In this document: in pieces, positions 16,503 through 30,394 of the stretch
How positions within the stretch are numbered: position 1 is the stretch's first letter
How the letters are laid out: the number at the start of each line of letters is the position of its first letter
Source: an uncultured Alphaproteobacteria bacterium
Lineage (GTDB): Bacteria > Pseudomonadota > Alphaproteobacteria > RF32 > CAG-239
Reading direction: 5' to 3'
Length of the DNA stretch: 64,000 bases
NCBI GenBank assembly: GCA_944393685.1
Contig: CALYAW010000002.1
Span: 79,586 to 143,585 of the forward strand
Made by a program: the position numbers and the translations under genes
Notes under the pieces: model-generated
What the model was told of the DNA's origin: nothing
What the model saw: only the letters and a program-made list of their open reading frames with translations
Database searches by the model: none

Positions 16503-17915
16503 TTATAAAATCTGTTTAAACATTTTTACTAAATTTTTAGTGTTTTTCTCATGAGAATAATTAGGAAAAAGATGTTGAAAATTTTTCTCTGAAGAAACAA
16601 TTCCTTCATAACATTTTGAACAAAATTCTGAGGCTTTTTTTTCTAATTCTTTATGATCTATACGCGTTTCTATCATTTTTTGAACATCAAGATTGGGAGA
16701 ATATTTAAATACTCCTGGACATGAATGCCACCATACTTTTCCAAAAATTAAGGCTGGTTTTCCTCCTCTTATGGATTCAAAGGCTGCTGTTCCTGATATG
16801 GTCGCTACAAATTGTGAATGCTCTAGTAATTTGTATGTATTTTCCTCTCTAGGAACAAAAAAGGTGTTTTTCAACAATTTAAAACGCTCAAAAAAACTCT
16901 TGGGACGATAAAAGCTTGTTTGTTTTGGATTTTCTTTTACATAGATTATCCAATCGGTAGGAATTAATGCCCTTAATTGTTCAAGTGCTAATATTTGATC
17001 GTTGTAATATTTTTCTCCCATAATAGAAGTTGTCATTTCTGGTTGTAAATGAAGAGGGAAATATACATATTTCTTTTGATAATCTACTTTTCTAATAAGA
17101 GACTTTAATGTTGTTATATAACACATTGCCAGATAAAATTTTCTAAAATTATGGAAAAAATAAAGAAACATAGGATTCCAGAAAAAGGTATTTTTTATTT
17201 TTTTTAGTCTTATAGCATTTTTTAAAATGTTAAGAGACATAATTATCATTTTTTTCCTTTTTACATTTATATTCGGTGTAAAATATTTTATATTATGCAT
17301 ATAAAATAAATCTTTTTTATATCCTTCTTCTAAACAAATTTTAACATTTCTTACTTTTTTCTTCATACTTTGATAATAGCATTTATCATTTTCATCATAA
17401 TAATATGTAATTATCGGAAGAAAATTATCTGGTTGAAATTCCTGTCCGAGTAAAAGAGTTTTTATTCCTAAATATTTAGCCACGAGATATAACATATTAT
17501 CCACACCTGAATGTGGTACTTCCCAAAAAACTATTTGTTCTATTTTCTCTTTTGTTAAATAACCATATGCAAATCTTAAAGCGATATTTACAGCATGTAT
17601 AGAATCATGAAAACTGAGCACTGGTTCTAGATGTTCATGACGTTCAAAACATTCTATATAAAAATAAAGTTTTTCATACATTTTTGCGTATAAATCTTCT
17701 GGAATAACAAGGTTATCCGTATATTTATGTACCAAATCTTGCGTTGCTCTATTTAACCCATGCCATGGTGAAAAAAATCCTGCTTGCCTAATTAGTTTAG
17801 GATGGTCATCTGCAAATTCTGCAAAAAAATTAATTAACTCTATTTTTCCCTGCCTTTCTAGCTCAAGAAAAGCATCCAGCATAACTGTTGTATAAGCATA
17901 AAAAACCGTTCTCAT
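16503..17915 (-). CDS. Capsule-polysaccharide-biosynthesis-family (KpsS/LpsZ/RkpZ-like) transferase, last gene of the operon
   Basis: 470 aa; the C-terminal segment 'ISGTAAFESIRGGKPALIFGKVWW' resembles the Capsule_synth (KpsS/KpsC) nucleotide-sugar-binding region. The assignment is from memory of that family, not a search. Confidence 0.4.
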   Translation of the reverse strand: MRTVFYAYTTVMLDAFLELERQGKIELINFFAEFADDHPKLIRQAGFFSPWHGLNRATQDLVHKYTDNLVIPEDLYAKMYEKLYFYIECFERHEHLEPVLSFHDSIHAVNIALRFAYGYLTKEKIEQIVFWEVPHSGVDNMLYLVAKYLGIKTLLLGQEFQPDNFLPIITYYYDENDKCYYQSMKKKVRNVKICLEEGYKKDLFYMHNIKYFTPNINVKRKKMIIMSLNILKNAIRLKKIKNTFFWNPMFLYFFHNFRKFYLAMCYITTLKSLIRKVDYQKKYVYFPLHLQPEMTTSIMGEKYYNDQILALEQLRALIPTDWIIYVKENPKQTSFYRPKSFFERFKLLKNTFFVPREENTYKLLEHSQFVATISGTAAFESIRGGKPALIFGKVWWHSCPGVFKYSPNLDVQKMIETRIDHKELEKKASEFCSKCYEGIVSSEKNFQHLFPNYSHEKNTKNLVKMFKQIL

Positions 17916-17927
17916 CTTATTTACTTT

Positions 17928-18947
17928 CTATAAAATATCTTCTTGTTGTAGTGGAGTTCCTAGGGTTAAATCACGCCTCGCCCTTTTTCCTATAATCTTT
18001 TCATAATAACGAGGATGTAAACCTTTAGAAGGACGAATAGATCGTATGTTTTCTGAAGTAAATTCCTCCCCTTGCTTAATTTCTTTTACAACGTAAAGGG
18101 ATCGTCCTAGTTGCCTGTTTTGCTCATTGACCGTATAATCAACCTTCCCAATGGCTTTTTCCGTCTCTCTTACAGCTTTTACCATTGCTGAAAATTCTTC
18201 TTTATTTAAAGAGAAACCACTATCCGCTCCGCCTAAAGAGCGATCTAGCGTAAAATGCTTTTCTATAACAGATGCTCCCATTGAAACAGCCACAATCGGA
18301 GGAACAATACTCATTGAGTGATCAGATAATCCCACTTTTACTCCTTGCGGACCAAATCTATCTCTCATATCTTGAATTGTTAACAAATTCATGTCTTCAA
18401 CTTTTGAAGGATATGCTGAAGTACATTTTAGCAAGGTAATATCTTTGTTTCCCACGGACAAACAGCTGTCTACGGCTTCTTGAATTTCGTCCAATGACGA
18501 AATTCCTGTTGAAATAATCATCGGTTTTCCGTGTTGAGCAGCGTATTTTATCAAATGATAATCGTAGGCTTCAAAACTGGCAATCTTATACAAGGGAACA
18601 TTAATCGTTTCTAAAAAATCAACGGCTGTAGTATCAAATGGTGTTGAAAATAATGGGATACCTAGCTCGTCTGCATAATCTTTTAATTCTCTTTGCCACT
18701 CCCAAGGAGTATATGCTTCAGAATATAAATCGTATAAATATTTTCCATCCCATAGACCTCCATTTAATCTAAATTCTGTATTGTGACAATTTATGGTTAA
18801 GGTATCTGCCGTATATGTTTGAATTTTTACAGCATCGGCCCCCACCTCTTTTGCCGCTTTAATAATTCCTTTGGCTAGTTGTTTATTGCCGCAGTGATTA
18901 GCGGACATCTCGGCAATAATAAATACCTTAGACATCTTGATCTCCAT
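17928..18947 (-). CDS. pseI: NeuB-family nonulosonic acid synthase (pseudaminic acid synthase PseI-like) with a C-terminal SAF domain
   Basis: 'KVFIIAEMSANHCG' N-terminus, a TIM-barrel NeuB core, and a C-terminal SAF/antifreeze-like domain (GRSLYVVKEIKQGEEFT). Confidence 0.85.
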   Translation of the reverse strand: MEIKMSKVFIIAEMSANHCGNKQLAKGIIKAAKEVGADAVKIQTYTADTLTINCHNTEFRLNGGLWDGKYLYDLYSEAYTPWEWQRELKDYADELGIPLFSTPFDTTAVDFLETINVPLYKIASFEAYDYHLIKYAAQHGKPMIISTGISSLDEIQEAVDSCLSVGNKDITLLKCTSAYPSKVEDMNLLTIQDMRDRFGPQGVKVGLSDHSMSIVPPIVAVSMGASVIEKHFTLDRSLGGADSGFSLNKEEFSAMVKAVRETEKAIGKVDYTVNEQNRQLGRSLYVVKEIKQGEEFTSENIRSIRPSKGLHPRYYEKIIGKRARRDLTLGTPLQQEDIL

Positions 18948-19608
18948 AAATTTTCAGAATATATTTTTTCCCTTTCATTTCAAAAAATGCAGGATAGTTT
19001 TCGTTATCTACAATCCTTAATAGATTAAACTGATTTGCAATACTTTGGTGAATATCAAGTTTGCTATCTACAGGACTACGCTTAGCGTAAAATGTTTCCA
19101 CCCCCGTTTGCTCTTTTCCTGTTTGAATAATCGACGGATAGCTAGAGACGAAGGAAATACACATTTCTACGATTTTTTTACCCATTTTTTCTTGCCACTC
19201 ACTTATCAATTCTGAGCCGTCTAATAAGACTGAATCTTGTATATATATTTTCCCGGCATCTACTTTTTCATCTGCTTCAAATAAAGTTAGTGGAATACTG
19301 TCCTTTCCCTCTAAAATTTGCCAACTAGCTGGAGACCATCCTTTTCCTGACGGTAAATTGCTTGCATGCACTACAATATTGTGTCTATTTAGCGCTAATT
19401 TTTCTTTTTTTATGATTTCAAAACAACTCAAAAAAAAGGCTATATCTCCTTTTTGTAGTTGAATTTTATTATCTATTAACCTGACTTCATGTCCTTGGCA
19501 TGTCAAATACTCTTGCAAGGTTAGATTATATTTATTCATCCAACTGGTTTTATCTGTTAATATCGTGATCTTAAGCATTTTATTGCACCTCTTCAAATAA
19601 ATCCGCAT
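18928..19608 (-). CDS. Formyltransferase-domain protein (Met-tRNA formyltransferase / PurN-like N-terminal domain)
   Basis: 'HNIVVHASNLPSGKGWSP' matches the formyl_trans_N catalytic region (HxSLLPxxRG-like). 226 aa. Confidence 0.6.
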   Translation of the reverse strand: MRIYLKRCNKMLKITILTDKTSWMNKYNLTLQEYLTCQGHEVRLIDNKIQLQKGDIAFFLSCFEIIKKEKLALNRHNIVVHASNLPSGKGWSPASWQILEGKDSIPLTLFEADEKVDAGKIYIQDSVLLDGSELISEWQEKMGKKIVEMCISFVSSYPSIIQTGKEQTGVETFYAKRSPVDSKLDIHQSIANQFNLLRIVDNENYPAFFEMKGKKYILKIYGDQDV

Positions 19609-21631
19609 CTTTCAATCTTTTGGCAATCTGGGACAATTCTGAAACAGAAACATTTATGCGATTACTGATATCAATTAAATCATTTGTTCCATCGCTATAA
19701 GCTATTAAATCCATCATGTGTTGAACAATTGATTTTGTGTCTTTTGTGCTTGTAGTTGGGTAAAGACCTCTCTTTCCAAGCTGTGGTTCTCCCAAACATT
19801 TTATTTTATACTTTTTATTTCCTTCTATCGTTGTAATTAATTCTTTATATAACTCAAAAGTTTCTTGCAAGGCATCTGCTGTTACAAAGTTTAAATTGTC
19901 TCCTGAGGTATGATATTCTGGATAAGTTCCATATTTACTTCTTATTACAGAACAGAACGGTAAATCAACTCCTGGAGCACAATATTGTCTCTCGTCAGAG
20001 CCTCTGTCTAAAAAAGTATAAGATTTATAATCTGATGTATTATTACACAATACATTTAGCGCGACTTTGTCTGCAAAAGTATTGCCATATCTGCTTGGAA
20101 TATAAGAAAATTTTCCAGGATCTCCAACACAGGTCAAAATAAAACCCGCCTTTACTTTTTGTTTCAAATGGTGCAAATGTTCTGTAATATATGTGATACT
20201 TCCTATGGTTTCCGGCGCAAAAACAAAACGATAGGTATAATGATTAGGATGAACACTCAGCCACTTTGCTAAAAAGATTGCCAATACAGGACCTGATAAT
20301 TCATTGTTGGCCATGGAAGGATGGCATACATACGTAGAAAACATTATTTCTTCATCAGTTTCTCCCGGAATAACCAAATCCGCGTATGTTAGGGCTCCTT
20401 CTTTTAATTCAGAGTCTATAAAAATTTCATATACATCTTCTTTCAACGACAATCTTTGTGTTTCTGTCATGCAAAAACCGTAGCGCTCTTTATAATAAGA
20501 GGTAATGTAAGGAATCAAGTTCGGTTGTTGGGGTAATGTATATATGATTTCATTCAACTCTTTTAGTGAGACCTTTTTATGAACAGGGATTGAATAGCCG
20601 ACGACATGCAAATTATTTTCTTTAAAATCAATAATTTTATTTCCTGTACTATCTTTAATCCACGCATCTTTGATATTCCATTCTTGAGGAATAACCCAGT
20701 CTTGAACTTGTGTTCCACTGGCTTTCTCATGAATTTGAAGGTGGGGCATAATCTTTTGAAGCTCTTGAAGTGTTTGACGAACGCCATTTCCTGTTAGTGA
20801 ACGGCATATGGGAAACAAACGCTTTATCCACGAATAAATGACCTTACCTTCTCCACCTTGATACAACGCTGCCTTATCGCAAGAATTGTTTTTTATATTA
20901 TCGTCAATAGCATCACACGCTTGTTTCATATCAATTAGTTTTATAAATGAATTTCCTACATAACTTTTCTTTTCTATGTTCCTTTGGCCAAATTCATTAA
21001 ATAATATATAGCCTAATGAAATTAAATCTCTATCTAGATAACGAACATACATTGAATATGTTTTGCTTGAGCGAGTTCCTTCTTCATTAATATAATCTGC
21101 AGTAAATTCTTTTGAAAAACGATATGGAACTAAATTACATGTTTCTACATAGTGGCAAAATGTTGCAGAATCAGAATAGTCAATATTAATAAATAAATTT
21201 TTTGCCCCTATTGCATAGAACCAGCCAAAAATAGAATCTGCGCCAAAAGAATCTTTGTAATCTAAAGAAGTAAGATAGTCTTTGTCTTTCCCATAAACTG
21301 CAAATGAATAAATTGGGTGTTTTGTTCTCTTAAAATCATTTCTCTGTAATGCTTGTTTTGATAAGATACCTGTTTTAGAGGTGGTTTTGTTATAATCGAA
21401 TGTCTTCCCTTTACAAAAACCCCAGTTATATGTCGGAAAAACCAAATTTCCATTATCGCCGACAACTTCTTTTAATGTATCTATAATCATATCTAAAGAA
21501 AGGTCTTCTTTTCGTTCCTGTGCATCACAAAGCAATTGCGTAACATCTGAAGATACAAATAAAGTATCACCCTTTTGAAGCCCCATGTTGATAATATTTT
21601 TTTTAAAGTCATCTATAAGCATATTACACAC
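19580..21631 (-). CDS. Fusion protein: N-terminal AAC(3)-family N-acetyltransferase plus C-terminal M28-peptidase/DUF4910-like domain
   Basis: N-terminal 'MGLQKGDTLFVSSDVTQL' resembles the AAC(3) (Antibiotic_NAT) motif 'GDxLxVHSSL'. The C-terminal half (HPSMANNELSGPVLAIFLAKWL...FVFAPETIGS) is M28/aminopeptidase-like. 683 aa. Confidence 0.5.
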   Translation of the reverse strand: MCNMLIDDFKKNIINMGLQKGDTLFVSSDVTQLLCDAQERKEDLSLDMIIDTLKEVVGDNGNLVFPTYNWGFCKGKTFDYNKTTSKTGILSKQALQRNDFKRTKHPIYSFAVYGKDKDYLTSLDYKDSFGADSIFGWFYAIGAKNLFINIDYSDSATFCHYVETCNLVPYRFSKEFTADYINEEGTRSSKTYSMYVRYLDRDLISLGYILFNEFGQRNIEKKSYVGNSFIKLIDMKQACDAIDDNIKNNSCDKAALYQGGEGKVIYSWIKRLFPICRSLTGNGVRQTLQELQKIMPHLQIHEKASGTQVQDWVIPQEWNIKDAWIKDSTGNKIIDFKENNLHVVGYSIPVHKKVSLKELNEIIYTLPQQPNLIPYITSYYKERYGFCMTETQRLSLKEDVYEIFIDSELKEGALTYADLVIPGETDEEIMFSTYVCHPSMANNELSGPVLAIFLAKWLSVHPNHYTYRFVFAPETIGSITYITEHLHHLKQKVKAGFILTCVGDPGKFSYIPSRYGNTFADKVALNVLCNNTSDYKSYTFLDRGSDERQYCAPGVDLPFCSVIRSKYGTYPEYHTSGDNLNFVTADALQETFELYKELITTIEGNKKYKIKCLGEPQLGKRGLYPTTSTKDTKSIVQHMMDLIAYSDGTNDLIDISNRINVSVSELSQIAKRLKDADLFEEVQ

Positions 21632-22391
21632 CTAAAAGAAAAGATACGTCTTTTGCAAAGTCATCAAGATTTTCTTTGCTGTTTTTATTTGTTTCTATGG
21701 ATATTATCGCATCTGCCGGAAAAACTTCTGCCTTCAAATATTGAATATCCAGTCGGCCTGTTCCTAAATGAGGGTGCGCATCATACGGAGAAGTCATATC
21801 TGAAACGTCCGATAAATGAAACATCTGAGGGTGAAATTGTAATAAATCTTTTATATAAAAATATGCTTCTATACCTTGTGAATTTGCAGAACAAATCGCA
21901 TGCCCTATATCTAAACAAAAACCACATTTCGCAATTTCTTTAATTAAGGAGATTTCTTTGATTGTTGATCCTCGGCAATATTCTCCTCCCATTTTATTTG
22001 GCAAGGCCACAAATGGTTTGTTTTCAATTAAGGCTCGTGATTCTTTTAATTTTGACAGTTGACGAGCCGTCTCTTCGACAGTCCCGTCAATACCTCCATG
22101 AAAAATTATGTATTTTGCCTCCAATTCGTCAGCAAAACGTTTTGTTTGTTCATAGATTTCTATATTGCGTTTTTCATGATCTTTTTTGGCAAGATTAAAA
22201 CCATGCGCAAAATGTGGATTATGAATGATAAACGGAATTTGTAATTTTTTCCATAAATCTAAGGTTTCCTGTGTATCCGGAACAACATATAACTCTATAT
22301 AATCATAAACTCCGCGCTCATATAATTTTTCTGCTTCGTGCAGATAAGAATCGGTATTAATCGACCATAATTTTAGCCCTAGTTTATACAT
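21624..22391 (-). CDS. Xylose-isomerase-like TIM-barrel sugar phosphate isomerase/epimerase
   Basis: 255 aa; AP_endonuc_2-like pattern (FHGG...; HLGTGRLD). Confidence 0.6.
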   Translation of the reverse strand: MYKLGLKLWSINTDSYLHEAEKLYERGVYDYIELYVVPDTQETLDLWKKLQIPFIIHNPHFAHGFNLAKKDHEKRNIEIYEQTKRFADELEAKYIIFHGGIDGTVEETARQLSKLKESRALIENKPFVALPNKMGGEYCRGSTIKEISLIKEIAKCGFCLDIGHAICSANSQGIEAYFYIKDLLQFHPQMFHLSDVSDMTSPYDAHPHLGTGRLDIQYLKAEVFPADAIISIETNKNSKENLDDFAKDVSFLLGV

Positions 22392-23064
22392 TATGCATAA
22401 CCTTATATTTTATTTCTGCCATTTTCCAATCTTCAAGTGTATCAATATCTTGTATTTGACTTTCATCCATCTCAAAAAAAGAAGTTCTATTTTCTTTTCT
22501 TTGAAAAATGTAGTTTTTCATAAAGTAAAACATTCCAACATCATGGTACAATGGCTCTAAATCTTGAGATCGCTTGGAGGCATTTTCTGGTTCACGATAT
22601 TCAAGATATCCTTGTTGGTTAATTCGGAAAGCTCTTTGAATCGGAAAAGAAAATCTTACAACTGGCGTTAATGCATCACAATCTTTATAATAAAATTCTT
22701 CATAGGCTCGCCTTAATATTTCCCCTGTTAAAAAAGGAACACACGGATAAATACAACAGATTGTATCAAAATTCTTACCTTGTTCTTGATACTTTTCAAT
22801 CACTTCTTTCAATACATCTGCTGTTGTCGCATAATCATTGGATGTTTGTTGTGACCTCATAAACGGAATTTTTGCGCCATACTTTAGAGAAATATCAGCA
22901 ATTTCTTCATCTTCCGTCGAAACCATTATCTCACTAAAAATTTGGCTATCTTGTGCAGCTTTTATTGCATAAGATATCATTGGCTTTCCCATAAATTCTT
23001 TGATGTTTTTGCGTGGGATTCTTTTAGAGCCGCCTCGCGCTGTGATAATAGCTACAGAAGACAT
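22384..23064 (-). CDS. pseF: Acylneuraminate/pseudaminic acid cytidylyltransferase (CMP-nonulosonic acid synthetase, PseF/NeuA family)
   Basis: 'AIITARGGSKRIPRKNIKEFMGKPMISYAIKAA' is the canonical CTP_transf_3 N-terminus. Confidence 0.85.
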   Translation of the reverse strand: MSSVAIITARGGSKRIPRKNIKEFMGKPMISYAIKAAQDSQIFSEIMVSTEDEEIADISLKYGAKIPFMRSQQTSNDYATTADVLKEVIEKYQEQGKNFDTICCIYPCVPFLTGEILRRAYEEFYYKDCDALTPVVRFSFPIQRAFRINQQGYLEYREPENASKRSQDLEPLYHDVGMFYFMKNYIFQRKENRTSFFEMDESQIQDIDTLEDWKMAEIKYKVMHNV

Positions 23065-24164
23065 TACTCTATCTCCTTTACCCTCTTTATAATTTCTTCC
23101 AAATCAGTATCCGTTAAACTAGGATAAAGTGGAAGAGATATACATTGTGAGTAATATTGTTCCGCTTTGGGATAATCCCCTCGCTTGTAGCCAAAGCGAG
23201 TATAGTATGGCTGAGTATGAACCGGAATATAATGAACTTGAAGATTTAATCCGTTTTCTCGTGCTTTAAAATAAAAATCACGACGATTTTTAACTAATAT
23301 CGGATATAAATGAAAACAGGCATTAGAATATTTTCTTTCTTGAAGATGTTTTATTCCTAAGTTTTTATTATAAAAATCAACGATTTCACGACGGCGTTTT
23401 TTGAATACATCTAGTTTCTTTAGTTGGCTTATTCCTAAAGCTGCTTGAATATCTGTCATGCGATAATTATAACCAAGTTCCCGCATTTCATATTCCCAAG
23501 TTTCTACCATGTCTTTATCTTTGTGCATTCCATGAGATCGTAGTGCACAAAGTTTTTCGTATAATTCTTTGTTATTGGTAGTAATTGCTCCTCCCTCACC
23601 CGTGGTGATAGTTTTGACCGGGTGGAAAGAAAAAACCGTCATATCCGAATAAGCGCAAGATCCAACCTTTGTATCTTTATAATCTGAACCAATTGCGTGA
23701 GCGGCATCTTCTATAACATACAAATTATGTTTATGAGCTATTTCAGAAATTGCTTCCATGTCACAGGATTGCCCTGCAAAATGAACTGGTATCAATACCT
23801 TTGTCTTATCTGTAATGTGCCTCTCAATTTCTTGCGGTGATATATTTGCTGTTTCTTCTTCTATATCTGCAAATACAGGTGTTGCCCCCGTATAACATAT
23901 ACAATTGGCTGAAGACAAAAATGTTATGGGTGATGTTATTGCCTCATCGCCTTTGCTTAGTCCTGTGGCCATTGCCGCTATATGCAATCCCGCCGTAGCA
24001 TTTGAAACTGCAACACAATATTTGGCTCCTGTATATTTGCAAATCTCTTGTTCAAATTCCTTAATCTTAGGTCCGCAAGTAAGATAATCGCTCTTTAAAA
24101 CATCCATTACTGCCGAAATGTCGCTATCATCTATTGTTTGATGCCCATATCCGTATTTAATCAA
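23064..24164 (-). CDS. pseC: PLP-dependent DegT/PseC-type aminotransferase (UDP-4-amino-4,6-dideoxy-N-acetyl-beta-L-altrosamine transaminase-like)
   Basis: DegT_DnrJ_EryC1 family: N-terminal 'GYGHQTIDDSDISAVMDVLKSDYLT', the PLP region 'SFHPVKTITTGEGG' and a C-terminal SPAT signature. Overlaps pseB by 8 nt. Confidence 0.85.
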   Translation of the reverse strand: MIKYGYGHQTIDDSDISAVMDVLKSDYLTCGPKIKEFEQEICKYTGAKYCVAVSNATAGLHIAAMATGLSKGDEAITSPITFLSSANCICYTGATPVFADIEEETANISPQEIERHITDKTKVLIPVHFAGQSCDMEAISEIAHKHNLYVIEDAAHAIGSDYKDTKVGSCAYSDMTVFSFHPVKTITTGEGGAITTNNKELYEKLCALRSHGMHKDKDMVETWEYEMRELGYNYRMTDIQAALGISQLKKLDVFKKRRREIVDFYNKNLGIKHLQERKYSNACFHLYPILVKNRRDFYFKARENGLNLQVHYIPVHTQPYYTRFGYKRGDYPKAEQYYSQCISLPLYPSLTDTDLEEIIKRVKEIE

Positions 24165-25161
24165 TGTCTAAATCCTTTATTAAATTTTTCATATCATCTA
24201 CACTTAGCCACCATGTGTTTGTTCCAGAATTATATGAGAACCTTGGCGCCACCGGTTTTCCTCCCATTTCTTTGGCATGCTCATGCCACCATGGCGTATC
24301 TGGATAAATGACATAGTACCTATCAAACTCCATGGTATGATGAGCGTCTTCTTCTGAGATCATTTGCTCGTGTATCTTTTCTCCTGGACGAATGCCTATT
24401 TCTCTTATCGGCAAATCTGGTGCAATCGCTTGAGCAAGTTCTGGCATCCGCATAGAGGGAATTTTTTTGACAAATAATTCTCCTCCTTGCATTACTTCAA
24501 AAGCATTAATCACCATTTCCACTGCTTCTTCCAGCTTTAGCCAAAAACGTGTCATGGAACAATCTGTAATGGGAAGATATTCTGCTTTTTCTTTTACAAG
24601 ATTCAAAAAGTACGGGATTACAGAACCTCTTGAGCCTGCAACGTTGCCATATCGTACAACGGAAAACTTTGTCCTTTTATCCCCTCTGTATCCATTGGCT
24701 GCAATAAAAAGTTTGTCTGAACATAATTTTGTTGCTCCATACAAATTAACCGGAGAACTTGCTTTGTCCGTTGATAACGCAACAACTTTTTCAACATTGC
24801 TTTCAAGTGCAACATCTATAACATTTTGGGCTCCTAGAACATTGGTCTTGATTGCTTCAAAAGGATTGTATTCACAGGCTGGGACCTGTTTTAAGGCGGC
24901 GGCATGAATTACGTAGTCCACATTTTCCATAGCTAAACGTAGCCGTTCTTTATCCCTAACATCGCCAATAAAAAATCTTATTTTTGGTAAATATTTTTTT
25001 AGTTCAGGCATATTAGACATCATAAACTGTTTAAACTCGTCTCTTGAGTATATGATAATCTTTTTAACGTCCGGATTGCTTTCTAAGACTGTTTTTGTAA
25101 ATTTTTTACCAAAGGATCCCGTGCCACCTGTGATAAAAAGAGTTTTTCCGCTAAAATCCAT
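24157..25161 (-). CDS. pseB: UDP-N-acetylglucosamine 4,6-dehydratase (inverting), PseB/FlaA1 family
   Basis: Near-colinear with C. jejuni/H. pylori PseB as I recall it: 'LFITGGTGSFGK', 'IIYSRDEFKQ', 'FFIGDVRDKERL', 'YNPFEAIKTNVLGAQNVID', 'LSTDKASSPVNLYGATKLCSDKLF', 'RYGNVAGSRGSVIPYF'. Confidence 0.95.
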   Translation of the reverse strand: MDFSGKTLFITGGTGSFGKKFTKTVLESNPDVKKIIIYSRDEFKQFMMSNMPELKKYLPKIRFFIGDVRDKERLRLAMENVDYVIHAAALKQVPACEYNPFEAIKTNVLGAQNVIDVALESNVEKVVALSTDKASSPVNLYGATKLCSDKLFIAANGYRGDKRTKFSVVRYGNVAGSRGSVIPYFLNLVKEKAEYLPITDCSMTRFWLKLEEAVEMVINAFEVMQGGELFVKKIPSMRMPELAQAIAPDLPIREIGIRPGEKIHEQMISEEDAHHTMEFDRYYVIYPDTPWWHEHAKEMGGKPVAPRFSYNSGTNTWWLSVDDMKNLIKDLDID

Positions 25162-25168: not shown

Positions 25169-26341
25169 CTACTCTACCCTTATATTTCTTGATATTGTTC
25201 GAACGATATCATACCCGTCCCAAAACACGCCGATATCCATAGCTTTGCCTATGGGAACGATGCGATCTATCCCTTTGACATTGGAATTTATCAAGCTATC
25301 ACAAAAAAAACTTGAGTCAACTCCAAAATAGGTAACGGTTTGAAATCTATCACTAATAATATGTAAAAGTTCTTTTATATCTGATAATGAATATTCATAA
25401 AAATATCCACTCTTTCCTCGATGGTTAACAACTCCATCATCTAATTTTGAAAGCTCTTCGCGATAAATCAAATTCTCTTCTCTGGTACAGCTCAAAAAAT
25501 TCGGATTATTTATCGCCTCCTCACACATTAGTGTATATTTGTCTATTGCTGAAGCATCTTGCAATAAATATTTTTGCTTAGACGCCTCATAGATTGCCTC
25601 CCAAAATATATCTCTGGCTTTGGATGAATCATTTTGCCATAAAATAAGTTGTGGAGAAGAGCAAGCGTTTTGATCCATTAAATATGTATCATTATAAAAA
25701 TTATCTGCCAACCTTTTAATTTCTTCAGAACTTGCTTCTATGATGCTGTGACCATCTATTATAGCTAAGGAATATCTATCAGCAAATGTGATATCTATGC
25801 ATCTCGGTTTTGTCGGCATTTGTTTGATTAAAGAAATCGTTTCATCTCCTCCCCATATCATACGAACATCTGCCATCTTACAAAATACAGATGTAATCTC
25901 ATCATCTCGAGGATATGTTATAAATGCTGTTCTTGTTTCTATTTCAGGATATTTTTTTAATACGTCCTTAAATATATCGCATAAAATTTCTACCTGCGGA
26001 TATTTCTTGCTGGGTAAACGCACAATGTTAGCATTACCAGCCAGTAATCCAAACAAAAAAGTAAATGCGAAATTAATCGGTATATTAGATGGTGCTATAT
26101 GAAAGCATAATCCTCGTCCCAACCATCTGTTGCATTCTCCGAAGTCTCTTTTTAACTTTTCTATATTTTTCTTTCTTCCCCAAAATGCTAACGCGGATAA
26201 ATCCGGATATTGACGGATTAAGGAAGATGTCATTATTTTCTCAGATACATTGGTTATAAAACTGCAAACATCTTCATTATACACCGATAATGGTGTTTGA
26301 ATGATATTTTCTGAACCTATAATAAAATTAACGTTTTTCAT
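25169..26341 (-). CDS. LuxC-like acyl-CoA/acyl-protein reductase
   Basis: 390 aa. LuxC family by length and overall pattern; compare V. cholerae O1 RfbO. Confidence 0.55.
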   Translation of the reverse strand: MKNVNFIIGSENIIQTPLSVYNEDVCSFITNVSEKIMTSSLIRQYPDLSALAFWGRKKNIEKLKRDFGECNRWLGRGLCFHIAPSNIPINFAFTFLFGLLAGNANIVRLPSKKYPQVEILCDIFKDVLKKYPEIETRTAFITYPRDDEITSVFCKMADVRMIWGGDETISLIKQMPTKPRCIDITFADRYSLAIIDGHSIIEASSEEIKRLADNFYNDTYLMDQNACSSPQLILWQNDSSKARDIFWEAIYEASKQKYLLQDASAIDKYTLMCEEAINNPNFLSCTREENLIYREELSKLDDGVVNHRGKSGYFYEYSLSDIKELLHIISDRFQTVTYFGVDSSFFCDSLINSNVKGIDRIVPIGKAMDIGVFWDGYDIVRTISRNIRVE

Positions 26342-27404
26342 ATGTGTCGCTACATCCTCTCAATTCGGCATTTTTTATTCGACCGTAAATTTTAAAGTAT
26401 TTTCCTTTTCGCCCGCAAGGACAATCGTCTTCTCCCAAGATTGCTCCTTCATCTTCTGTTAAAATAATATGTCCGGGATAACTTGTCGGAAGAACGGACA
26501 AAAGCTCAATCAAGCCTTTCTCTCCTATATTTGCTTCGGAAAAATCTTTTGCTCTACGAATAATCACATCAGAATAATTGGAACAATGCATGTGCCCGTG
26601 CTCACATTCAACAAAAACAGATCCTAATTGTTCTGCCATTCCGTAATAATTATATACCTTCACGTTTCCTAAACATTTTTGTATTCGACGATTAAATTCT
26701 AAAACATCGACTGCCTGATCTTTTAGTTTTTTCCAGCCGCCTATGTGAAATAAAATCGCGTTTTTGATATTAAACGAGATATTATTTTCTTCTAATGCTC
26801 GAACAACAAATTGCCATATCATATACGTGTATCCAAACATTAAGATTGGCTCATTTTCGTGCTCTTTGATAAAATCAGAAACTTTTTGGATATTAATATT
26901 CATATTCTCATCTAATGCATATGTACTATTTCTGCCAAAAATCGAAAAACCTATAATCCCGGCTCCTCGAGCAGAATACATCGTCCGATCTTTTTTTATC
27001 ATTTCTGTATCTAAAAGCAATAATGGCAACCTAGACTTACCAATAAAAGAAGAAATAATTTCATTCAATGTTTTGGTTTGATTGCGAACATTCTCTGCAT
27101 CCAAAAATATTTTAGAAACCGCCTGTCCGGATGTCCCTGATGATGTAAGCGTTTTGGTAATCTGTTCGTCCGAAACACTTTTTAATTCAAATTGTTTGAA
27201 AAGTCTGACAGGGATAAAAGGTAAATCTGCACTAGAAAAAACTTCTTGTGGATTGTACCCCAAGGCTTTAAGAATTTTGGCATATTCAGGACAATTTTTA
27301 TAATGTTTTACCGTAAGTTCTTTGAGAATTTGCGTCAAAACTTTATTTTTCTCGGATTTTGTTAATGAATATGGGGCTATCTGAAACAAGTCATTTAATG
27401 TCAT
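26328..27404 (-). CDS. LuxE-like acyl-protein synthetase
   Basis: 358 aa; LuxE family by N-terminal 'TKSEKNKVLTQILKELTVKHYKNCPEY' and a C-terminal Cys-containing region; compare V. cholerae O1 RfbN. Confidence 0.55.
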   Translation of the reverse strand: MTLNDLFQIAPYSLTKSEKNKVLTQILKELTVKHYKNCPEYAKILKALGYNPQEVFSSADLPFIPVRLFKQFELKSVSDEQITKTLTSSGTSGQAVSKIFLDAENVRNQTKTLNEIISSFIGKSRLPLLLLDTEMIKKDRTMYSARGAGIIGFSIFGRNSTYALDENMNINIQKVSDFIKEHENEPILMFGYTYMIWQFVVRALEENNISFNIKNAILFHIGGWKKLKDQAVDVLEFNRRIQKCLGNVKVYNYYGMAEQLGSVFVECEHGHMHCSNYSDVIIRRAKDFSEANIGEKGLIELLSVLPTSYPGHIILTEDEGAILGEDDCPCGRKGKYFKIYGRIKNAELRGCSDTYEKR

Positions 27405-28059
27405 CTTTTATTTCCTTTATAAAAACATCTTTCGGCTCAGAAAAGATTGCTCCCAATGCAGTATATAGATTCAAAACAGCCATATTTTGCGAGCTTATAC
27501 GCCCATTTAATTTCTTGTAGCCTTTTTCATATGCTGTTTTGCAAGCCGTTGCATATAATGCCATCGCAGCTCCGCTCATGCGATATTTTTCATCTACGGC
27601 GGCCAAATACACAAATAGCGAAGAAATATCCTCTTCTTGCAATGCTAAAAATCCTATAGGCTTATCCTTAAAGATGGCAACTAATACCTTATCTAGGTTG
27701 TTGACATATTCTTTTAAAACATATCTCGAAATATCTTTTGAACATAATGGAGCCACATGAAAACGCCTATCATAAAGAAATGAATCTTCTGCTATCTGTA
27801 AAATCTCATTTTTATATTCCGATGTTTCAATGATAGGTAAACGTATAAATTTATCCAAATCTATTGAACATTTATTTAAACTTACGGAGGCTTTTATGGT
27901 TCTGTCTGCAAAATAAAAGCCCTGCTGCTGCATCAATATTTCCGAATTAGCGGAACTAGGCAATTCAACACGCAAATATTGAGCTCCTGACGCATTCCAA
28001 TCTTGAATTTGTGCTGCATCATCGTTAAATACCTTAAAAGCTCCATAATCTTTTAACAT
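27391..28059 (-). CDS. GNAT-family N-acyltransferase (candidate PseH-like or acyl-group transferase)
   Basis: 222 aa; acetyl-CoA-binding-like region 'LAAVDEKYRMSGAAMALYATACKTAYEKGYKKL'. Confidence 0.5.
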   Translation of the reverse strand: MLKDYGAFKVFNDDAAQIQDWNASGAQYLRVELPSSANSEILMQQQGFYFADRTIKASVSLNKCSIDLDKFIRLPIIETSEYKNEILQIAEDSFLYDRRFHVAPLCSKDISRYVLKEYVNNLDKVLVAIFKDKPIGFLALQEEDISSLFVYLAAVDEKYRMSGAAMALYATACKTAYEKGYKKLNGRISSQNMAVLNLYTALGAIFSEPKDVFIKEIKDDIK

Positions 28060-29456
28060 AGTTTATTCAACTCCGCATATAAAACTTTTCCGGCTTCATT
28101 TTTGGGAATTTGTTTTAGATATTGAACATGAAATGCTGTAAAATTCAAATGTGTTTTATTGGCTACGAAACTTTGAATCTCTTTTATTCTTTTATCATCT
28201 GTAATAAAAATTGTCATAGCATCATCTTTTCCGGCACATACACAATCCAAATCTTGATATTGCGTTTTTATCAATCTCTCTGTTTCATCCAAATTAACTC
28301 TATTTCCAAAAATTTTCAAAAATCTTTTTTTTCGCCCGACAATACTATATACCCCATCTTTGTCAAACTTTGCCATATCTCCTGTCTGCAGCAATCCATG
28401 GCGCTCGTCTTCTTTGATTAGATCTTCTCCCTTTTCCGCATATCCAAGGGCCACATTATCTCCCTCATAAACAAGTTCTCCCACTGTTTCCGGTGTCGTA
28501 ATCGTTTGACCCTGCTCGTCTATCAAATGAAATTTTCCTCCCGGAATTGCAATTCCCATACAACCAAATTTTTCTAAGGAAATATTTGATGGAAGGTATC
28601 CCATCCGTGCCGTTGCTTCTGCTTGACCATACATAACGACAAACTCTTTTCCTTCTTTTTGGGCGTATTCGGCAAATTTTTGGTGCAAAATCGGCAATAT
28701 TTTTCCGCCGGCTTGCGTCATTGATTTTAAATATGGAAGTTTGCGCCTAAAAAACATTAGCTTATCAAGCATTTCATAGGTATAAGGAACGCCGGCAAAT
28801 GATGTAGCCTTCTGTTCACTAAACAATGTCCAAAATTCACGCTGCATTAATGTCTTATCTGTTAAAATTAATGTAGCGCCTACAGCCAGATGCGTGTTTA
28901 TTACCGATAAACCATATGTATAATTCATCGGTAACGTGGTAATTGGTCGTTCAGTTCCGTTTAAATGCAAATATTCAACTATAGAATGCGTGTTGGCTTC
29001 TAAGTTTTTGTAACTCTGACGAACAAATTTCGGAGAACCGGTGGAGCCAGATGTCGTTATTAGCAACGCTAATTCGTTGTACATTGGATAAGATGCTGTA
29101 TCCAATCTTTTAATCAGAGCATAATTACAATCTCGATAAACTTCTTCTCCTTCAAATTCACAAACTCGATTTTCTGGAAGCCATAAAAAATCTGGTTTAT
29201 AAAGATGTAAAAACGAAACCAATAAATCCTTATCTAGCTGCTCGTCCAGCATTAAAGGGACAATACCATGGTTGATAAATGCTGTATATCCTAATAAAGA
29301 GCCTATAGAATTTCGACATAAACAAAAGACTAAACATCTTTTGCCTACGGCAGCAGCCAATTTATCACCTTGTTGAGCGAGAAAAGCGTATGAGTAAGAT
29401 TTTCCCTCATCCGAAACAGCCGCTATCTTTGCTCCATATTGGCTAAAATTCCACAT
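28053..29456 (-). CDS. Stand-alone AMP-dependent adenylation enzyme (acyl-CoA/acyl-ACP ligase, DltA/RfbL-like)
   Basis: AMP-binding core motif 'LITTSGSTGSPKFV', and later 'YGQAEAT', 'GELVYEGDNVALGY', 'LQTGDMAKFDKDGVYSIVGRKK'; 467 aa. Confidence 0.85.
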   Translation of the reverse strand: MWNFSQYGAKIAAVSDEGKSYSYAFLAQQGDKLAAAVGKRCLVFCLCRNSIGSLLGYTAFINHGIVPLMLDEQLDKDLLVSFLHLYKPDFLWLPENRVCEFEGEEVYRDCNYALIKRLDTASYPMYNELALLITTSGSTGSPKFVRQSYKNLEANTHSIVEYLHLNGTERPITTLPMNYTYGLSVINTHLAVGATLILTDKTLMQREFWTLFSEQKATSFAGVPYTYEMLDKLMFFRRKLPYLKSMTQAGGKILPILHQKFAEYAQKEGKEFVVMYGQAEATARMGYLPSNISLEKFGCMGIAIPGGKFHLIDEQGQTITTPETVGELVYEGDNVALGYAEKGEDLIKEDERHGLLQTGDMAKFDKDGVYSIVGRKKRFLKIFGNRVNLDETERLIKTQYQDLDCVCAGKDDAMTIFITDDKRIKEIQSFVANKTHLNFTAFHVQYLKQIPKNEAGKVLYAELNKLC

Positions 29457-30144
29457 TTCTTATCTCCTTAATCTCAAAAACTCTTCCGTGTCCAGGAAAA
29501 ACCTTCATAAACTCAGGCATGCTATTAAGAAAAGGCTTTGTTTTTGAAAGATATTTTTGTGAATTTCCACCCGGAAAACGTGTGATTACAGGCGTATTAT
29601 AAATTAAAGAATCTCCTGTAAAAATTGCCACATTATTTAAAATAAAGCAACAACTTCCTGGTGAATGTCCCTCACAGTGTTTGCAAAAAATCTCTTGCTC
29701 TTGCCAGATAAGAGACAACTCTTCTCCAAAGGTTTTATCCGCTGTTATACAAAAAGGAAAAATATCGTCAGTCTGTTCCAAAAACTCTTGTGTTAGATGT
29801 GTTCCTTCCTTTTCATCTTTGTATTCTAACGCTATTCTTATCAGGCTGGGATAATTGTTTCGACTATCAACAATAAATTCGGCACAGTTTTTTTGGCAGA
29901 TTAACTCTGTCGCATATCTCTTTTGTAAACGAGGATAACCTATAACATGATCAATATGTTCATGTGTTAAAAGTATCGTTATCTTTTGGGGAGAATATTG
30001 GGTCAAAAATTTATCCAACTCTTTACTCTCATTAGGATCAATAACCAGAGCTTCTTTGTTGGCACATAAAACATATGAGTTTGCATCAATGAATTTTGAT
30101 GCAAACTTATATATGTTTAATCCGTTTAAAACAATTTTTTCCAT
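29443..30144 (-). CDS. MBL-fold metallo-hydrolase
   Basis: 'LLTHEHIDH' HxHxDH motif. The ORF track start (30228) would overlap the ACP gene by 71 nt, so I prefer the internal Met 'MEKIVLNGL'. Confidence 0.7.
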   Translation of the reverse strand: MEKIVLNGLNIYKFASKFIDANSYVLCANKEALVIDPNESKELDKFLTQYSPQKITILLTHEHIDHVIGYPRLQKRYATELICQKNCAEFIVDSRNNYPSLIRIALEYKDEKEGTHLTQEFLEQTDDIFPFCITADKTFGEELSLIWQEQEIFCKHCEGHSPGSCCFILNNVAIFTGDSLIYNTPVITRFPGGNSQKYLSKTKPFLNSMPEFMKVFPGHGRVFEIKEIRNVEF

Positions 30145-30157
30145 ATTCTCTCGAGAT

Positions 30158-30394
30158 TTAAAAAGTGATGTCGTATTTGGCCAAAATTTCCTGACCTTTT
30201 TCAAAACTGGATAAATCAACAATATCATCTGGCTCTAACATAATATCAAAAGCCTCTTCCAATTGAGCAACCAACCCCATATGTCCAACAGAATCCCAGG
30301 CCGGAATATCTTGAAATTTTAGTTTTTTTGCAGCTTCTTCATCAATATCAAATGCCTGACAAAACGCTTGCGTATACTTTTCAATATTACTCAT
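30158..30394 (-). CDS. Acyl carrier protein (ACP #1)
   Basis: 78 aa; a phosphopantetheine attachment serine in 'DIPAWDSVGHMGLVAQLEEAF'. Confidence 0.8.
   Translation of the reverse strand: MSNIEKYTQAFCQAFDIDEEAAKKLKFQDIPAWDSVGHMGLVAQLEEAFDIMLEPDDIVDLSSFEKGQEILAKYDITF

Follow-up and report, generated by a model that had tools for sequence, protein, structure and literature searches.

The window, which is the whole 64-kb stretch of DNA analysed here, was confirmed to carry seven ORFs at positions 17928-25161, all on the minus strand and overlapping or closely spaced. The core enzymes were judged by NCBIfam equivalog models with curated cut-offs, and the interval between PseF and PseI was judged by Pfam. 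As shown in Table 1, PseB, PseC, PseF, and PseI all exceeded their equivalog cut-offs (4/4). The identities of PseB and PseC given in an earlier note on this DNA were confirmed, and so was its assignment to the inverting (pseudaminic) route. Family membership indicates that the steps of these four enzymes are canonical. The Pse region forms the 3' third of a co-directional gene block of ~23 kb, running from 39416 to 16503. Homologues of the 470-aa protein encoded downstream were found in eight other loci, in several of them immediately after PseI.

Table 1. Positions of the pseudaminic acid (Pse) genes, protein domains, and neighboring genes in the window.
Feature	Position	Strand	Evidence
PseB, UDP-GlcNAc 4,6-dehydratase (inverting)	24157..25161	-	TIGR03589, 502.5 bits (cut-off 407.75)
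PseC aminotransferase	23064..24164	-	TIGR03588, 487.9 bits (cut-off 423.5)
PseF, CMP-pseudaminic acid synthetase	22384..23064	-	TIGR03584, 283.2 bits (cut-off 205.7)
Endonuclease-IV-like TIM barrel, 255 aa, PseG position	21624..22391	-	Pfam AP_endonuc_2
Fusion ORF, 683 aa (668 aa from the ATG of the public gene call)	19580-21631	-	Pfam: Antibiotic_NAT 47-243; DUF4910 with DUF2172 inserted 266-605; HTH_47 608-680
Fusion: AAC(3)-fold (Antibiotic_NAT) domain	20903..21493	-	PF02522, 94.6 bits (cut-off 25)
Fusion: DUF4910/DUF2172 metallopeptidase-like, non-peptidase domain	19817..20836	-	E = 2.5e-118 to CA_C2195, 3k9t
Fusion: HTH_47 circularly permuted winged-helix domain	19592..19810	-	PF16221, 84.8 bits
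Formyltransferase-like protein (FTL), 216 aa from Met11, PseH position beside PseI	18928..19578	-	Partial Formyl_trans_N (Pfam)
PseI, pseudaminic acid synthase	17928..18947	-	TIGR03586, 478.8 bits (cut-off 340.25)
Candidate CMP-Pse glycosyltransferase, 470 aa, KpsS/Capsule_synth-like	16503..17915	-	Weak PF05159 and BFO_1060-family matches
Upstream block: LuxC, LuxE, WecD-like GNAT, AMP-ligase, MBL-fold protein, split transketolase, two SDRs, two KAS III, two unknowns, WecE-type aminotransferase	25169..39416	-	Pfam and NCBIfam
Upstream ACP genes, two	30158-30394; 34789-35007	-	Small ORFs with WDS ACP motif
Sole nearby GNAT	27391-28059		Weakly WecD-like, not PseH

All frames of the 64-kb window were searched with a PseG HMM derived from six PseG-like sequences, of which four scored above the TIGR03590 cut-off; no PseG was found, even with the threshold relaxed to E <= 10. 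PseH was likewise not detectable across the 64 kb. The absence of a canonical PseH/PseG pair, noticed earlier, was confirmed. The canonical PseB-PseC-PseH-PseG-PseI-PseF pathway of Campylobacter jejuni and Helicobacter pylori shares with the window its four equivalog-level enzymes and the slot order PseF-hydrolase-acyltransferase-PseI. The window, however, has neither a GT-B PseG nor a GNAT PseH, and in their slots lie an Endo-IV-like TIM barrel and a protein of the formyltransferase fold.

About 165 related loci were compared, with flanks of 20 kb. The slots were counted in two sets, namely 63 adequately flanked genome loci centred on FTL and 28 metagenome loci centred on the TIM barrel. PseG was present in 34 of the FTL-centred loci, the TIM barrel in 11, both in none, and neither in 18 (P = 5.6e-5); no PseG was found in the TIM-centred loci (0/28). 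Directly upstream of FTL lay PseG in 18 loci and the TIM barrel in 13, and the upstream neighbor of the TIM barrel was PseF (27 loci) or PseC (10 loci). PseG and the TIM barrel each occurred both with PseH and with FTL, so that every one of the four pairings was observed: PseG with PseH (L087), PseG with FTL (L027, L043, and L064), TIM barrel with PseH-like GNAT (L092, L101, L117, and L118), and TIM barrel with FTL (the window, L002, and L004). FTL occurred together with a PseH-like GNAT in 17/63 loci (27%), in some of them in one polypeptide with an apparently intact GNAT, and is therefore no strict alternative to PseH. Many clusters (e.g., L020, L043, and L064) consisted of exactly PseB, PseC, PseF, PseG or TIM barrel, FTL, and PseI, with no further acyltransferase candidate.

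The closest solved relative of the TIM barrel by sequence was Endo IV of M. tuberculosis (5zhz), and its AF2 model had a pLDDT of 88. Invariant H57/H60, H98, D161, and H164 aligned with Nfo H69, H109, D179, and H182, and H192, D204, H206, and E233 aligned with Nfo H216, D229, H231, and E261; 8/9 metal ligands of E. coli Nfo were thus matched by invariant His, Asp, or Glu. Nfo Glu145 was paired with Pro131 in both aligners, and the IEN motif and predicted strand end suggest that the invariant Glu123 may be its equivalent. In Foldseek, Endo IV matched no better than sugar epimerases or MbnB (TM about 0.63-0.67). The protein shares the TIM barrel and the His/Asp/Glu ligand set with Endo IV but scored 42.5 bits against the best-matching deoxyribonuclease IV model, whose cut-off is 244. 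CbiR, of the same AP endonuclease 2 superfamily, hydrolyzes a small-molecule sugar-phosphate diester in cobamide remodelling and provides a precedent for such hydrolysis (PMC7733943). The CbiR model did not match the TIM barrel of the window, and relatives scored <=32.5 bits against a cut-off of 105. Unlike Endo IV and CbiR, the TIM barrel lies in a Pse cluster and not in a repair or cobamide locus, and its family has four invariant Cys residues.

TIM-GNAT fusion proteins were also found in other genomes. About a third of the best 150 representatives of the TIM family were roughly 400-430 aa long, and 8/10 of those scanned carried a PseH-like GNAT, in either domain order. In P0423, a TIM barrel of the same family as in the window is joined to an orthologue of PseJ that matches 6ci2 at E = 1.6e-42 and retains the N-x-H motif. 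The PseG slot, the absence of overlap with PseG (0/63), the Endo-IV-type ligands, and the GNAT and PseJ fusions make the TIM barrel the best candidate for a PseG substitute, and we propose that it is a metal-dependent UDP-sugar hydrolase rather than the isomerase named in the earlier note. No description of a TIM barrel as a PseG replacement was found in the literature searched.

If the TIM barrel were instead a sugar isomerase or epimerase, it would alter the stereochemistry of the hexose or the nonulosonate and so give a Pse isomer, and the release of UDP would fall to a promiscuous hydrolase or to a PseG encoded at an unlinked site. The public names ("sugar phosphate isomerase/epimerase") and the best Foldseek matches, which include tagatose-3-epimerase-like proteins, favor this, and the loci were viewed with 20-kb flanks only; a PseG could lie beyond the sequenced flanks. 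We nevertheless find it highly doubtful, since PseG was present in 0/39 TIM loci with adequate flanks compared with 34/52 non-TIM loci, where it was in-cluster, and since the TIM barrel has PseG's position and PseG-style fusions, while PseI and PseF are still orthodox Pse-type equivalogs. In addition, the ligand set of the TIM barrel is of the His-rich Endo IV type and includes equivalents of Nfo H182, D229, and H231, which sugar epimerases are not known to have.

The ORF of FTL spans 18928-19608, and the form starting at Met11 (19578) has an identical database protein. Its AF2 model (pLDDT 96) was nearest in fold to 1zgh, ArnA, VioF, WbkC, and HypX-N. The fold, including the small C-terminal subdomain, is common to the ArnA domain, VioF, WbkC, Rv3404c, and FdtF. 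With the ArnA domain and small sugar N-formyltransferases, FTL also has in common the S-x-LP-x-x-[KR]G loop and two catalytic residues, His and Asp, but it has no catalytic Asn and a shorter N-terminal region, and all NCBIfam scores were far under their cut-offs. The fold and the PseH slot next to PseI agree with the earlier placing of a formyltransferase-fold protein at the N-acylation step. Of the catalytic triad, set as a test beforehand, His71 and Asp107 were conserved, as was the S-x-LP loop, but position His-2, canonically Asn, was Val69. Val occupied this position in 88/91 family members, and the canonical Asn was missing in 91/91. Without this Asn, N-formyl transfer is not assured; the conserved features suggest that it is likely and that an N-formyl sugar product is plausible.

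The best structural and profile match of FTL was 1zgh, a "methionyl-tRNA formyltransferase" of Clostridium thermocellum from structural genomics (TM 0.79, E = 4.5e-16), which also lacks the canonical Asn. It is a representative of another family, FT2 (with Formyl_trans_C_2), against which FTL scored only 19-73 bits; FT2 and a PIG-L deacetylase occurred as a pair in 22 loci. PMC11040635, citing Reimer et al. 2018, gives PseJ of Anoxybacillus kamchatkensis (PDB 6ci2/6ci4) as the N-formyltransferase of the Pse5Ac7Fo route. PseJ resembles FTL in fold, length (about 200 aa), and pathway position, but the two are only remotely related (E = 0.004 with a single sequence, 8e-6 with a profile). PseJ has the canonical N-x-H, whereas FTL has Val at that site and its invariant Asn at His-4. 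In other genomes FTL adjoins or is fused to PseG, PseG-GNAT, or PseI, with PseG-FTL fusions in 5 loci (linkers 2-6 aa), PseG-GNAT-FTL fusions in 10, and a NeuB-FTL fusion in 1. The CoA motif of the GNAT in PseG-GNAT-FTL was intact in some proteins and degenerate or undetectable in others, such as those of Prochlorococcus and Synechococcus, and this decay fits a take-over by FTL.

FTL might also not be the N4-acyltransferase and might serve an extra step coupled to PseG and PseI, as another tailoring enzyme, in non-formyl folate chemistry, or as a non-catalytic partner, with N4 acylation in the window left to the AAC(3) domain or another acyltransferase. The family-wide absence of the Asn, the PseH-like GNATs alongside, the PseG-GNAT-FTL proteins whose CoA motif is intact, and several clusters with a second, 1zgh-like formyltransferase-fold gene and a PIG-L deacetylase are in line with such a role. 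We consider it unlikely, because many clusters have no other acyltransferase candidate, the GNAT domain is decayed or gone in PseG-x-FTL fusions, a true PseJ takes the equivalent position when fused to the TIM barrel, and the His, Asp, and folate-loop motif are strictly conserved.

The earlier note had FTL and the fusion in place of PseH/PseG; on such a reading, the AAC(3) domain or FTL would acylate, the M28-like domain would hydrolyze, and the TIM barrel would be an isomerase in a side role. The fusion does sit within the core, between PseF and PseI, AAC(3) enzymes acylate amino sugars and its AAC(3) domain is a solid Pfam member, and the family analysis of DUF4910 in PMC4000134 places a bound Zn in the conserved cleft. 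However, AAC(3)-DUF4910-HTH_47 is a common architecture, and the fusion or its parts were present in only 6/~165 loci that otherwise have the PseF-TIM-FTL-PseI core; the TIM barrel lay directly beside FTL with no intervening fusion in 13 loci. In Fusobacterium varium, the fusion adjoins a near-canonical PseG/PseH pair together with FkbH and an ACP, and mutual exclusion with PseG is shown by the TIM barrel, not by the fusion. Its DUF4910 domain belongs to the Cj1295 family (PMC3068675, PMC6321876). The N5-acyl Pse variant 5-(2,3-di-O-methylglyceroyl)-Pse depends on Cj1295. In Campylobacter, where both PseG and PseH are present, Cj1295 affects just this one glycoform (PMC3068675). A joint replacement by FTL and the fusion is thus very improbable.

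We read the fusion as an accessory N-acyl exchange module and not as a PseG/PseH substitute, with the AAC(3)-fold domain as the proposed N-acyltransferase and the DUF4910/DUF2172 domain as the proposed N-deacylase. The earlier view that the AAC(3) domain is no resistance enzyme was upheld (33.7 bits against an AAC(3)-IV cut-off of 420), and an H-x-x-E pair in it aligned with B. subtilis YokD. CA_C2195 (PDB 3k9t) is a close homologue of the DUF4910-DUF2172-HTH_47 part; its Zn ligand Asp195 contrasts with Asn-Glu in the window. Cj1295 adjoins pseB/pseC; unlike in C. jejuni, the acyltransferase and DUF4910 are joined in one polypeptide in the window. Like the window, the C. jejuni locus encodes ACPs and KAS III in the neighborhood of DUF4910, and its N-acetyltransferase Cj1296/7 probably has the AAC(3) fold.

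Taken together, we consider it fairly probable that the operon core makes CMP-Pse, or an N-acyl derivative, with FTL and the TIM barrel as non-orthologous substitutes and the fusion as an accessory. FTL would acylate the 4-amino group of UDP-4-amino-4,6-dideoxy-beta-L-AltNAc in place of the GNAT PseH, most likely with N10-formyl-tetrahydrofolate as donor, a swap parallel to the known one of PseJ for PseH. The TIM barrel, with a multinuclear metal site, would free the hexose from UDP in place of the GT-B hydrolase PseG, likely by attack at phosphorus and not at C1. PseI would condense the hexose with PEP, and PseF would activate the product. The fusion, encoded between the TIM barrel and FTL, may exchange an N-acyl group. 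Its DUF4910 domain, which contains Zn, would strip an acetyl or formyl group, and its AAC(3)-fold domain would add another acyl group, for which one of the two upstream-encoded ACPs is the probable carrier. The upstream genes are the probable source of an unusual acyl group and a second amino sugar, although the acyl-chain genes might serve that WecE/WecD-like second sugar and not Pse. The finished sugar would be transferred to its acceptor, probably by the 470-aa protein, and may be destined for a surface glycan.

In the region between PseB and PseI, all seven ORFs named in the earlier note were found; they lie end-to-end, with stop and start codons mostly overlapping. By their NCBIfam equivalog models, PseB, PseC, PseF and PseI are orthodox pseudaminic-acid (Pse) enzymes. 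The interval between PseF and PseI is made up of three genes, which encode a TIM barrel, an AAC(3)-DUF4910-HTH_47 fusion and a formyltransferase-like protein (FTL). The public gene calls (ENA ERZ28614114, a 314-kb metagenomic scaffold) start the fusion at an ATG 15 codons into the ORF and FTL at Met24; an identical 216-aa database protein starts at Met11, from which the homologues of FTL also align. An HMM of six PseG-like sequences, four of them above the TIGR03590 cut-off, found no PseG (TIGR03590, GT-B) in six-frame translations of the whole 64-kb window at E <= 10, and TIGR03590 had no match among the cluster proteins scanned. The sole nearby GNAT did not match PseH (TIGR03585) and was weakly WecD-like, with WecD-type models as its best matches (27 bits). 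Since the seven ORFs are present, PseG is undetectable and no PseH-type GNAT lies nearby, the earlier observation that a canonical PseH/PseG pair is missing was confirmed. Rfam searches over the window returned only two tRNAs, both unrelated, and when the two ends of the block were searched for promoters and terminators, the counts were no higher than those of shuffled sequence.

Table. Positions of the Pse genes and of neighbouring features in the window.
Feature	Position	Strand	Model or remark
Co-directional block	39416-16503		Pse region is its 3' third
WecE-type dTDP-4-amino-4,6-dideoxyhexose transaminase	38286-39416	minus	567.5 bits, above cut-off
ACP-like ORF, 72 aa	34789-35007	minus	WDS motif, weak ACP model match
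Split transketolase, N and C halves	30395-32180	minus	separate genes
ACP-like ORF, 78 aa	30158-30394	minus	WDS motif, weak ACP model match
GNAT	27391-28059	minus	weakly WecD-like
LuxC/LuxE-like genes	25169-27404	minus	acyl-reductase and acyl-protein synthetase
PseB	24157-25161	minus	TIGR03589, 502.5 bits vs equivalog cut-off 407.75, full length
PseC	23064-24164	minus	TIGR03588, 487.9 bits vs equivalog cut-off 423.5, full length
PseF	22384-23064	minus	TIGR03584, 283.2 bits vs equivalog cut-off 205.7, full length
TIM barrel, 255 aa	21624-22391	minus	AP_endonuc_2 (Pfam)
Fusion, 683-aa ORF	19580-21631	minus	Antibiotic_NAT, DUF4910 (DUF2172 inserted), HTH_47 (Pfam)
Formyltransferase-like ORF (FTL)	18928-19608	minus	Pfam
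PseI	17928-18947	minus	TIGR03586, 478.8 bits vs equivalog cut-off 340.25, full length
KpsS/Capsule_synth-like protein, 470 aa	16503-17915	minus	after PseI
MetRS	10587-12284		

The AlphaFold (AF2) model of FTL (pLDDT 96) has a formyltransferase fold, closest by Foldseek to 1zgh, the ArnA N-domain, VioF, WbkC and the HypX N-domain (E = 1e-13 to 1e-14 for ArnA, VioF and WbkC). The earlier note had set the Asn-His-Asp triad beforehand as the refuting test for a formyltransferase, and the triad was found in part. In the alignment with ArnA, H71 and D107 of FTL correspond to H104 and D140, and this His and Asp were kept in all 91 family domains. The Asn was missing: Val69 of FTL aligns with N102, and the position (His-2 of the N-x-H motif) was V or I in 91/91 domains and the canonical Asn in 0/91. 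An Asn was present at His-4 in 90 of the 91, and the full pattern Asn(-4)/Val(-2)/His/Asp in 88. FTL also retains the S-x-LP-x-G-K-G loop. Selection on FTL has clearly preserved a His/Asp active site, but the protein is not an orthodox member of the N-formyltransferases. Its family is tight, with more than 1,300 proteins of ~215 aa. A scan of species-representative genomes located relatives in 218 places, the best 80 of which came from Gastranaerophilales, picocyanobacteria, Desulfobacterota, Negativicutes, candidate-phyla bacteria and methanogens.

The formyltransferase characterised for the Pse5Ac7Fo route is PseJ (Reimer et al. 2018, cited in PMC11040635). PseJ and FTL are remote relatives, and the identification of FTL as PseJ was rejected because of the weak match (E = 0.004 by sequence and 8e-6 by profile). 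PseJ was also rejected as the identity of a second formyltransferase-fold gene in Anoxybacillaceae-type clusters, which is 1zgh-like. In 22 Pse loci, a second formyltransferase-fold gene, with a product ~60% identical to PDB 1zgh and likewise without the canonical Asn, had a PIG-L/LmbE-type deacetylase as its partner (among them L002, L014, L027, L030, L040, L044, L048, L049, L058, L075 and L082; L numbers denote the related loci compared). Such a pair resembles a module that would first deacetylate and then reacylate the other nitrogen.

We then considered the gene context of FTL in 80 genome loci. FTL lay almost always in a Pse cluster, beside PseI, and the gene directly upstream was PseG in 18 loci and the TIM barrel in 13. 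The PseG genes sampled there matched TIGR03590, 4/6 of them above its cut-off. FTL was also fused to PseG in five loci, through linkers of 2-6 residues, to PseG and a GNAT in 10 loci (PseG-GNAT-FTL, checked with Pfam), and to NeuB in one. A reading of the 720-790-aa fusions as PseF-PseG-FTL was rejected, as Pfam shows PseG-GNAT-FTL. Many clusters hold only PseB, PseC, PseF, PseG or TIM barrel, FTL and PseI (e.g., L020, L043 and L064); in these, FTL is the sole candidate for N4-acylation. A PseH-like HMM found a GNAT near FTL in 17 of 63 well-flanked loci, so FTL is not a strict alternative to PseH. The proposal that FTL simply replaces PseH was softened because of these GNATs and those inside the PseG-GNAT-FTL proteins. 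In the tri-domain proteins, the acetyl-CoA motif of the GNAT (R-x-x-G-x-G/A) was intact in L039, L085 and L056, degenerate or undetectable in the Prochlorococcus, Synechococcus and related proteins (L065, L074 and L067), and reduced with its domain to a 96-residue remnant in L045; the GNAT is absent from the short PseG-FTL fusions. We read this graded decay, from the motifs, as a probable take-over by FTL in progress, and the intact GNATs leave room for a different role of FTL.

The TIM barrel occupied the position of PseG. PseG and PseI were scored with non-iterated seed models, which gave clearly bimodal scores; iterated HMM searches for the two were discarded because they strayed to GT-B and NeuB proteins of other kinds (135 and 129 matches). 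Among the 63 well-flanked loci of the FTL-centred sample, PseG was present in 34, the TIM barrel in 11, both in none and neither in 18 (P = 5.6e-5). An independent, TIM-centred metagenome sample had PseG in 0 of 28 well-flanked loci. The upstream neighbour of the TIM barrel was PseF (27) or PseC (10), and the downstream neighbour was FTL, PseI or a small GNAT. These small GNATs matched the PseH model best (31-80 bits vs a cut-off of 93). The GNATs of TIM-barrel loci occurred as separate proteins, as fusions with PseI (481-494 aa) or as fusions with the TIM barrel itself: about one third of the top 150 family representatives are ~400-430 aa long, and 8 of 10 such proteins scanned carried a PseH-like GNAT, in either domain order. 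In one family member (P0423), the TIM barrel was joined to a clear PseJ orthologue (E = 1.6e-42 to 6ci2) with N-x-H intact. All four combinations of PseG or TIM barrel with PseH or FTL were found, and the TIM barrel is joined to PseH-like GNATs in the same way as PseG is. Together, these two observations are the pattern expected of non-orthologous displacement of PseG.

Several further arrangements were seen in these loci. GNAT-PseI fusions (481-494 aa) with the PseH-like GNAT N-terminal lay directly downstream of the TIM barrel in L097, L113, L118, L139, L150, L152, L153, L155, L163 and L164. Another TIM-family protein (P0393, 405 aa) has an N-terminal, endonuclease-like DUF559 domain where others have the GNAT; this could reflect either an erroneous gene call or another type of fusion. 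Between PseC and PseF, an accessory trio recurred, with one gene the size of an aldo-keto reductase, one for a small protein and one for a ~440-aa class-III aminotransferase (L002, L007, L028, L031, L039, L049, L099, L103, L134 and L140; families checked in L002).

The TIM-barrel family gave 1,739 matches in a word-indexed search and 295 clusters at 50% identity (E <= 1e-30) in an exhaustive one. Its members carry the public names 'sugar phosphate isomerase/epimerase' or 'endonuclease IV', and the sole solved sequence relative is M. tuberculosis endonuclease IV. The metal ligands of E. coli Nfo are reportedly H69, H109, E145, D179, H182, H216, D229, H231 and E261 (Hosfield et al. 1999, cited in PMC7733943). 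Eight of the nine aligned with invariant residues of the TIM-barrel family: H69 with H60 (hhalign) or H57 (HMMER alignment to the M. tuberculosis enzyme), and H109, D179, H182, H216, D229, H231 and E261 with H98, D161, H164, H192, D204, H206 and E233, respectively. The hhalign comparison of the family with E. coli Nfo alone was weak (probability 18%, E = 0.0013) and was used for residue mapping only. E145 aligned with Pro131; the invariant Glu123, which sits in an 'IEN' motif where a predicted strand ends, is the likelier equivalent. This His-rich ligand set is characteristic of Endo IV, and sugar epimerases generally use a four-ligand site. Foldseek with the TIM-barrel model did not separate Endo IV, sugar epimerases and MbnB. 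At the family level, the protein falls short of endonuclease IV (Nfo): its best deoxyribonuclease IV model scored 42.5 bits vs a cut-off of 244. It also differs from CbiR (NF041277), which the TIM barrel of the window did not match and its relatives matched with at most 32.5 bits vs a cut-off of 105; CbiR acts in cobamide remodelling, whereas the context of the TIM barrel is Pse biosynthesis. Beside the metal ligands, the family has four additional invariant cysteines (C139, C156, C159 and C167 in the family alignment A3). CbiR, of the same superfamily, is metal-dependent and oxygen-sensitive (PMC7733943) and needs DTT. The cysteines might point to further metal binding or to redox sensitivity of the enzyme.

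The AAC(3) domain of the fusion matched PF02522 with 94.6 bits (cut-off 25) over profile positions 17-228 of 232, and its H-x-x-E pair aligned with that of YokD. As the earlier note had supposed, it is not a resistance enzyme, with AAC_3_IV at 33.7 bits vs 420 and AAC_3 at 27.7 vs 270. DUF4910, DUF2172 and HTH_47 scored 343, 121 and 85 bits, and the C-terminal two-thirds of the protein is a close homologue of CA_C2195 (3k9t; E = 2.5e-118). CA_C2195 is without the M28 catalytic residues, binds one Zn and occurs in modified-sugar operons (Das et al., PMC4000134). The DUF4910 part of the fusion belongs to PIRSF015244 in that the M28 catalytic Asp/Glu are changed to Ser/Pro and HPS and FAPET are conserved. 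The Zn ligands His189 and His324 of CA_C2195 were kept, and the site of Asp195 is an Asn followed by a Glu (HPSMANNELSG), as seen most often in those fusion homologues whose motif was recognised. Cj1295 of C. jejuni, assigned by its domain to the CA_C2195 family (PMC6321876), adjoins pseB and pseC and is required for 5-(2,3-di-O-methylglyceroyl) Pse; removal of the N5-acetyl group was the role suggested for it in that study (PMC3068675). Cj1295 is also correlated with pse genes (PMC13130089).

The fusion architecture is common, being present in more than 100 of the 120 best matches, in Lachnospiraceae, Erysipelotrichaceae and Fusobacterium. In F. varium, it lies beside PseB, PseF, PseG-like (139.6 bits), PseH-like (90.8 bits), PseI and PseC genes. 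Next come FkbH (307.9 bits) and an ACP, a pair of the kind that generates glyceryl-ACP. AAC(3) and DUF4910 are separate adjacent genes in Galligastranaerophilus and Methanospirillum, and of ~165 related loci only six had DUF4910 and only four an AAC(3) gene. The proposal of the earlier note that the fusion stands in place of PseH/PseG was thus not borne out; its rarity among these loci, its split forms and its place beside PseG/PseH-like genes in F. varium indicate a variable accessory, which is most simply a deacylase plus reacylase.

The remainder of the gene block encodes the WecE-type aminotransferase, two unknown proteins, two KAS III, two SDRs and two small ACPs, together with the split transketolase, an MBL-fold protein, an AMP-ligase, the GNAT, LuxE and LuxC. 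Both ACP-like ORFs sit among the KAS III, SDR and transketolase genes and escape a 100-aa ORF filter. The two transketolase genes stand directly before an ACP, an arrangement resembling the systems with which certain natural-product pathways charge an ACP with a two-carbon glycolyl unit; by this analogy, an N-glycolyl or extended hydroxyacyl group could come from them. The WecE-type transaminase and the WecD-like GNAT would imply, from their sequences, a second amino sugar in the glycan, and it could be this 4-amino-6-deoxyhexose, instead of Pse, that in fact receives the unusual acyl group. The LuxC/LuxE-like genes lie immediately upstream of PseB, and three metagenome loci (L090-L092) likewise have a LuxC there. 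The 470-aa protein has only faint similarity to the Capsule_synth and BFO_1060 families and recurs in distant taxa (L007, L057, L064, L075, L085, L101, L134 and L147), in several of them directly after PseI. We regard it as a candidate family of Pse transferases. The MetRS of the window clustered at >= 90% identity with a protein of a MAG labelled 'Alphaproteobacteria bacterium', and the nearest homologues of FTL and the TIM barrel (Pse core 17928-22391) were from Gastranaerophilales. The differing affinities suggest that the Pse core was transferred laterally or that the bin is mislabelled, and the Pse cluster may have been acquired horizontally.

We propose the following pathway. PseB and PseC, by family membership, would convert UDP-GlcNAc to UDP-4-amino-4,6-dideoxy-beta-L-AltNAc. 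FTL would acylate N4, most likely with formyl, as a new kind of N4-acyl transferase from an Asn-less family. The TIM barrel would free the hexose from UDP. Endo IV cuts the P-O(sugar) bond. CbiR, whose model some TIM-barrel relatives matched weakly, hydrolyses a small-molecule sugar-phosphate diester in cobamides (PMC7733943). Given these two activities, hydrolysis of a UDP-sugar by the TIM barrel is chemically plausible: sugar-O-P cleavage would yield UDP and the free hexose that PseI needs, and the protein would represent a new class of nucleotide-sugar hydrolase with a multinuclear metal site and attack at phosphorus. PseI would then make Pse and PseF activate it with CMP, both again by family membership. 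The fusion may swap one N-acyl group for another acyl, putatively made by the upstream ACP, KAS III, SDR, transketolase and LuxE/LuxC genes, and the 470-aa KpsS-like protein may transfer the sugar. Our most far-reaching interpretation is tentative, and we regard it as possible but somewhat short of probable: two Pse steps would have been captured independently in many lineages by unrelated folds, the TIM barrel for PseG and FTL for N4-acylation, with an AAC(3)-DUF4910 deacylase/reacylase in the window.

The Pse pathway, the use of the formyltransferase PseJ in place of PseH and the link between DUF4910/Cj1295 and Pse are already known. The literature searched gave no description of an Endo-IV-like TIM barrel in the role of PseG, of the Asn-less FTL family or its PseG/PseI fusions, or of the AAC(3)-DUF4910 pairing as one acyl-exchange unit. 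Pseudaminic acid, a virulence and vaccine target, is found on flagella, pili, capsules and S-layers. Predictions of the pathway depend on detecting the full set of six Pse genes. Should the TIM barrel be analogous to PseG and FTL to PseH, many genomes scored as Pse-incomplete would be complete, including those of gut Gastranaerophilales, marine picocyanobacteria, methanogens and candidate-phyla bacteria. The AP-endonuclease-2 superfamily would also gain a third chemistry, nucleotide-sugar release, after DNA repair and CbiR. To our knowledge, Cj1295 has been without a biochemical function since 2010. DUF4910/Cj1295 now gains a concrete partner in the AAC(3)-fold acyltransferase fused to it, and this partnership could explain the origin of N-acyl diversity in nonulosonic acids.
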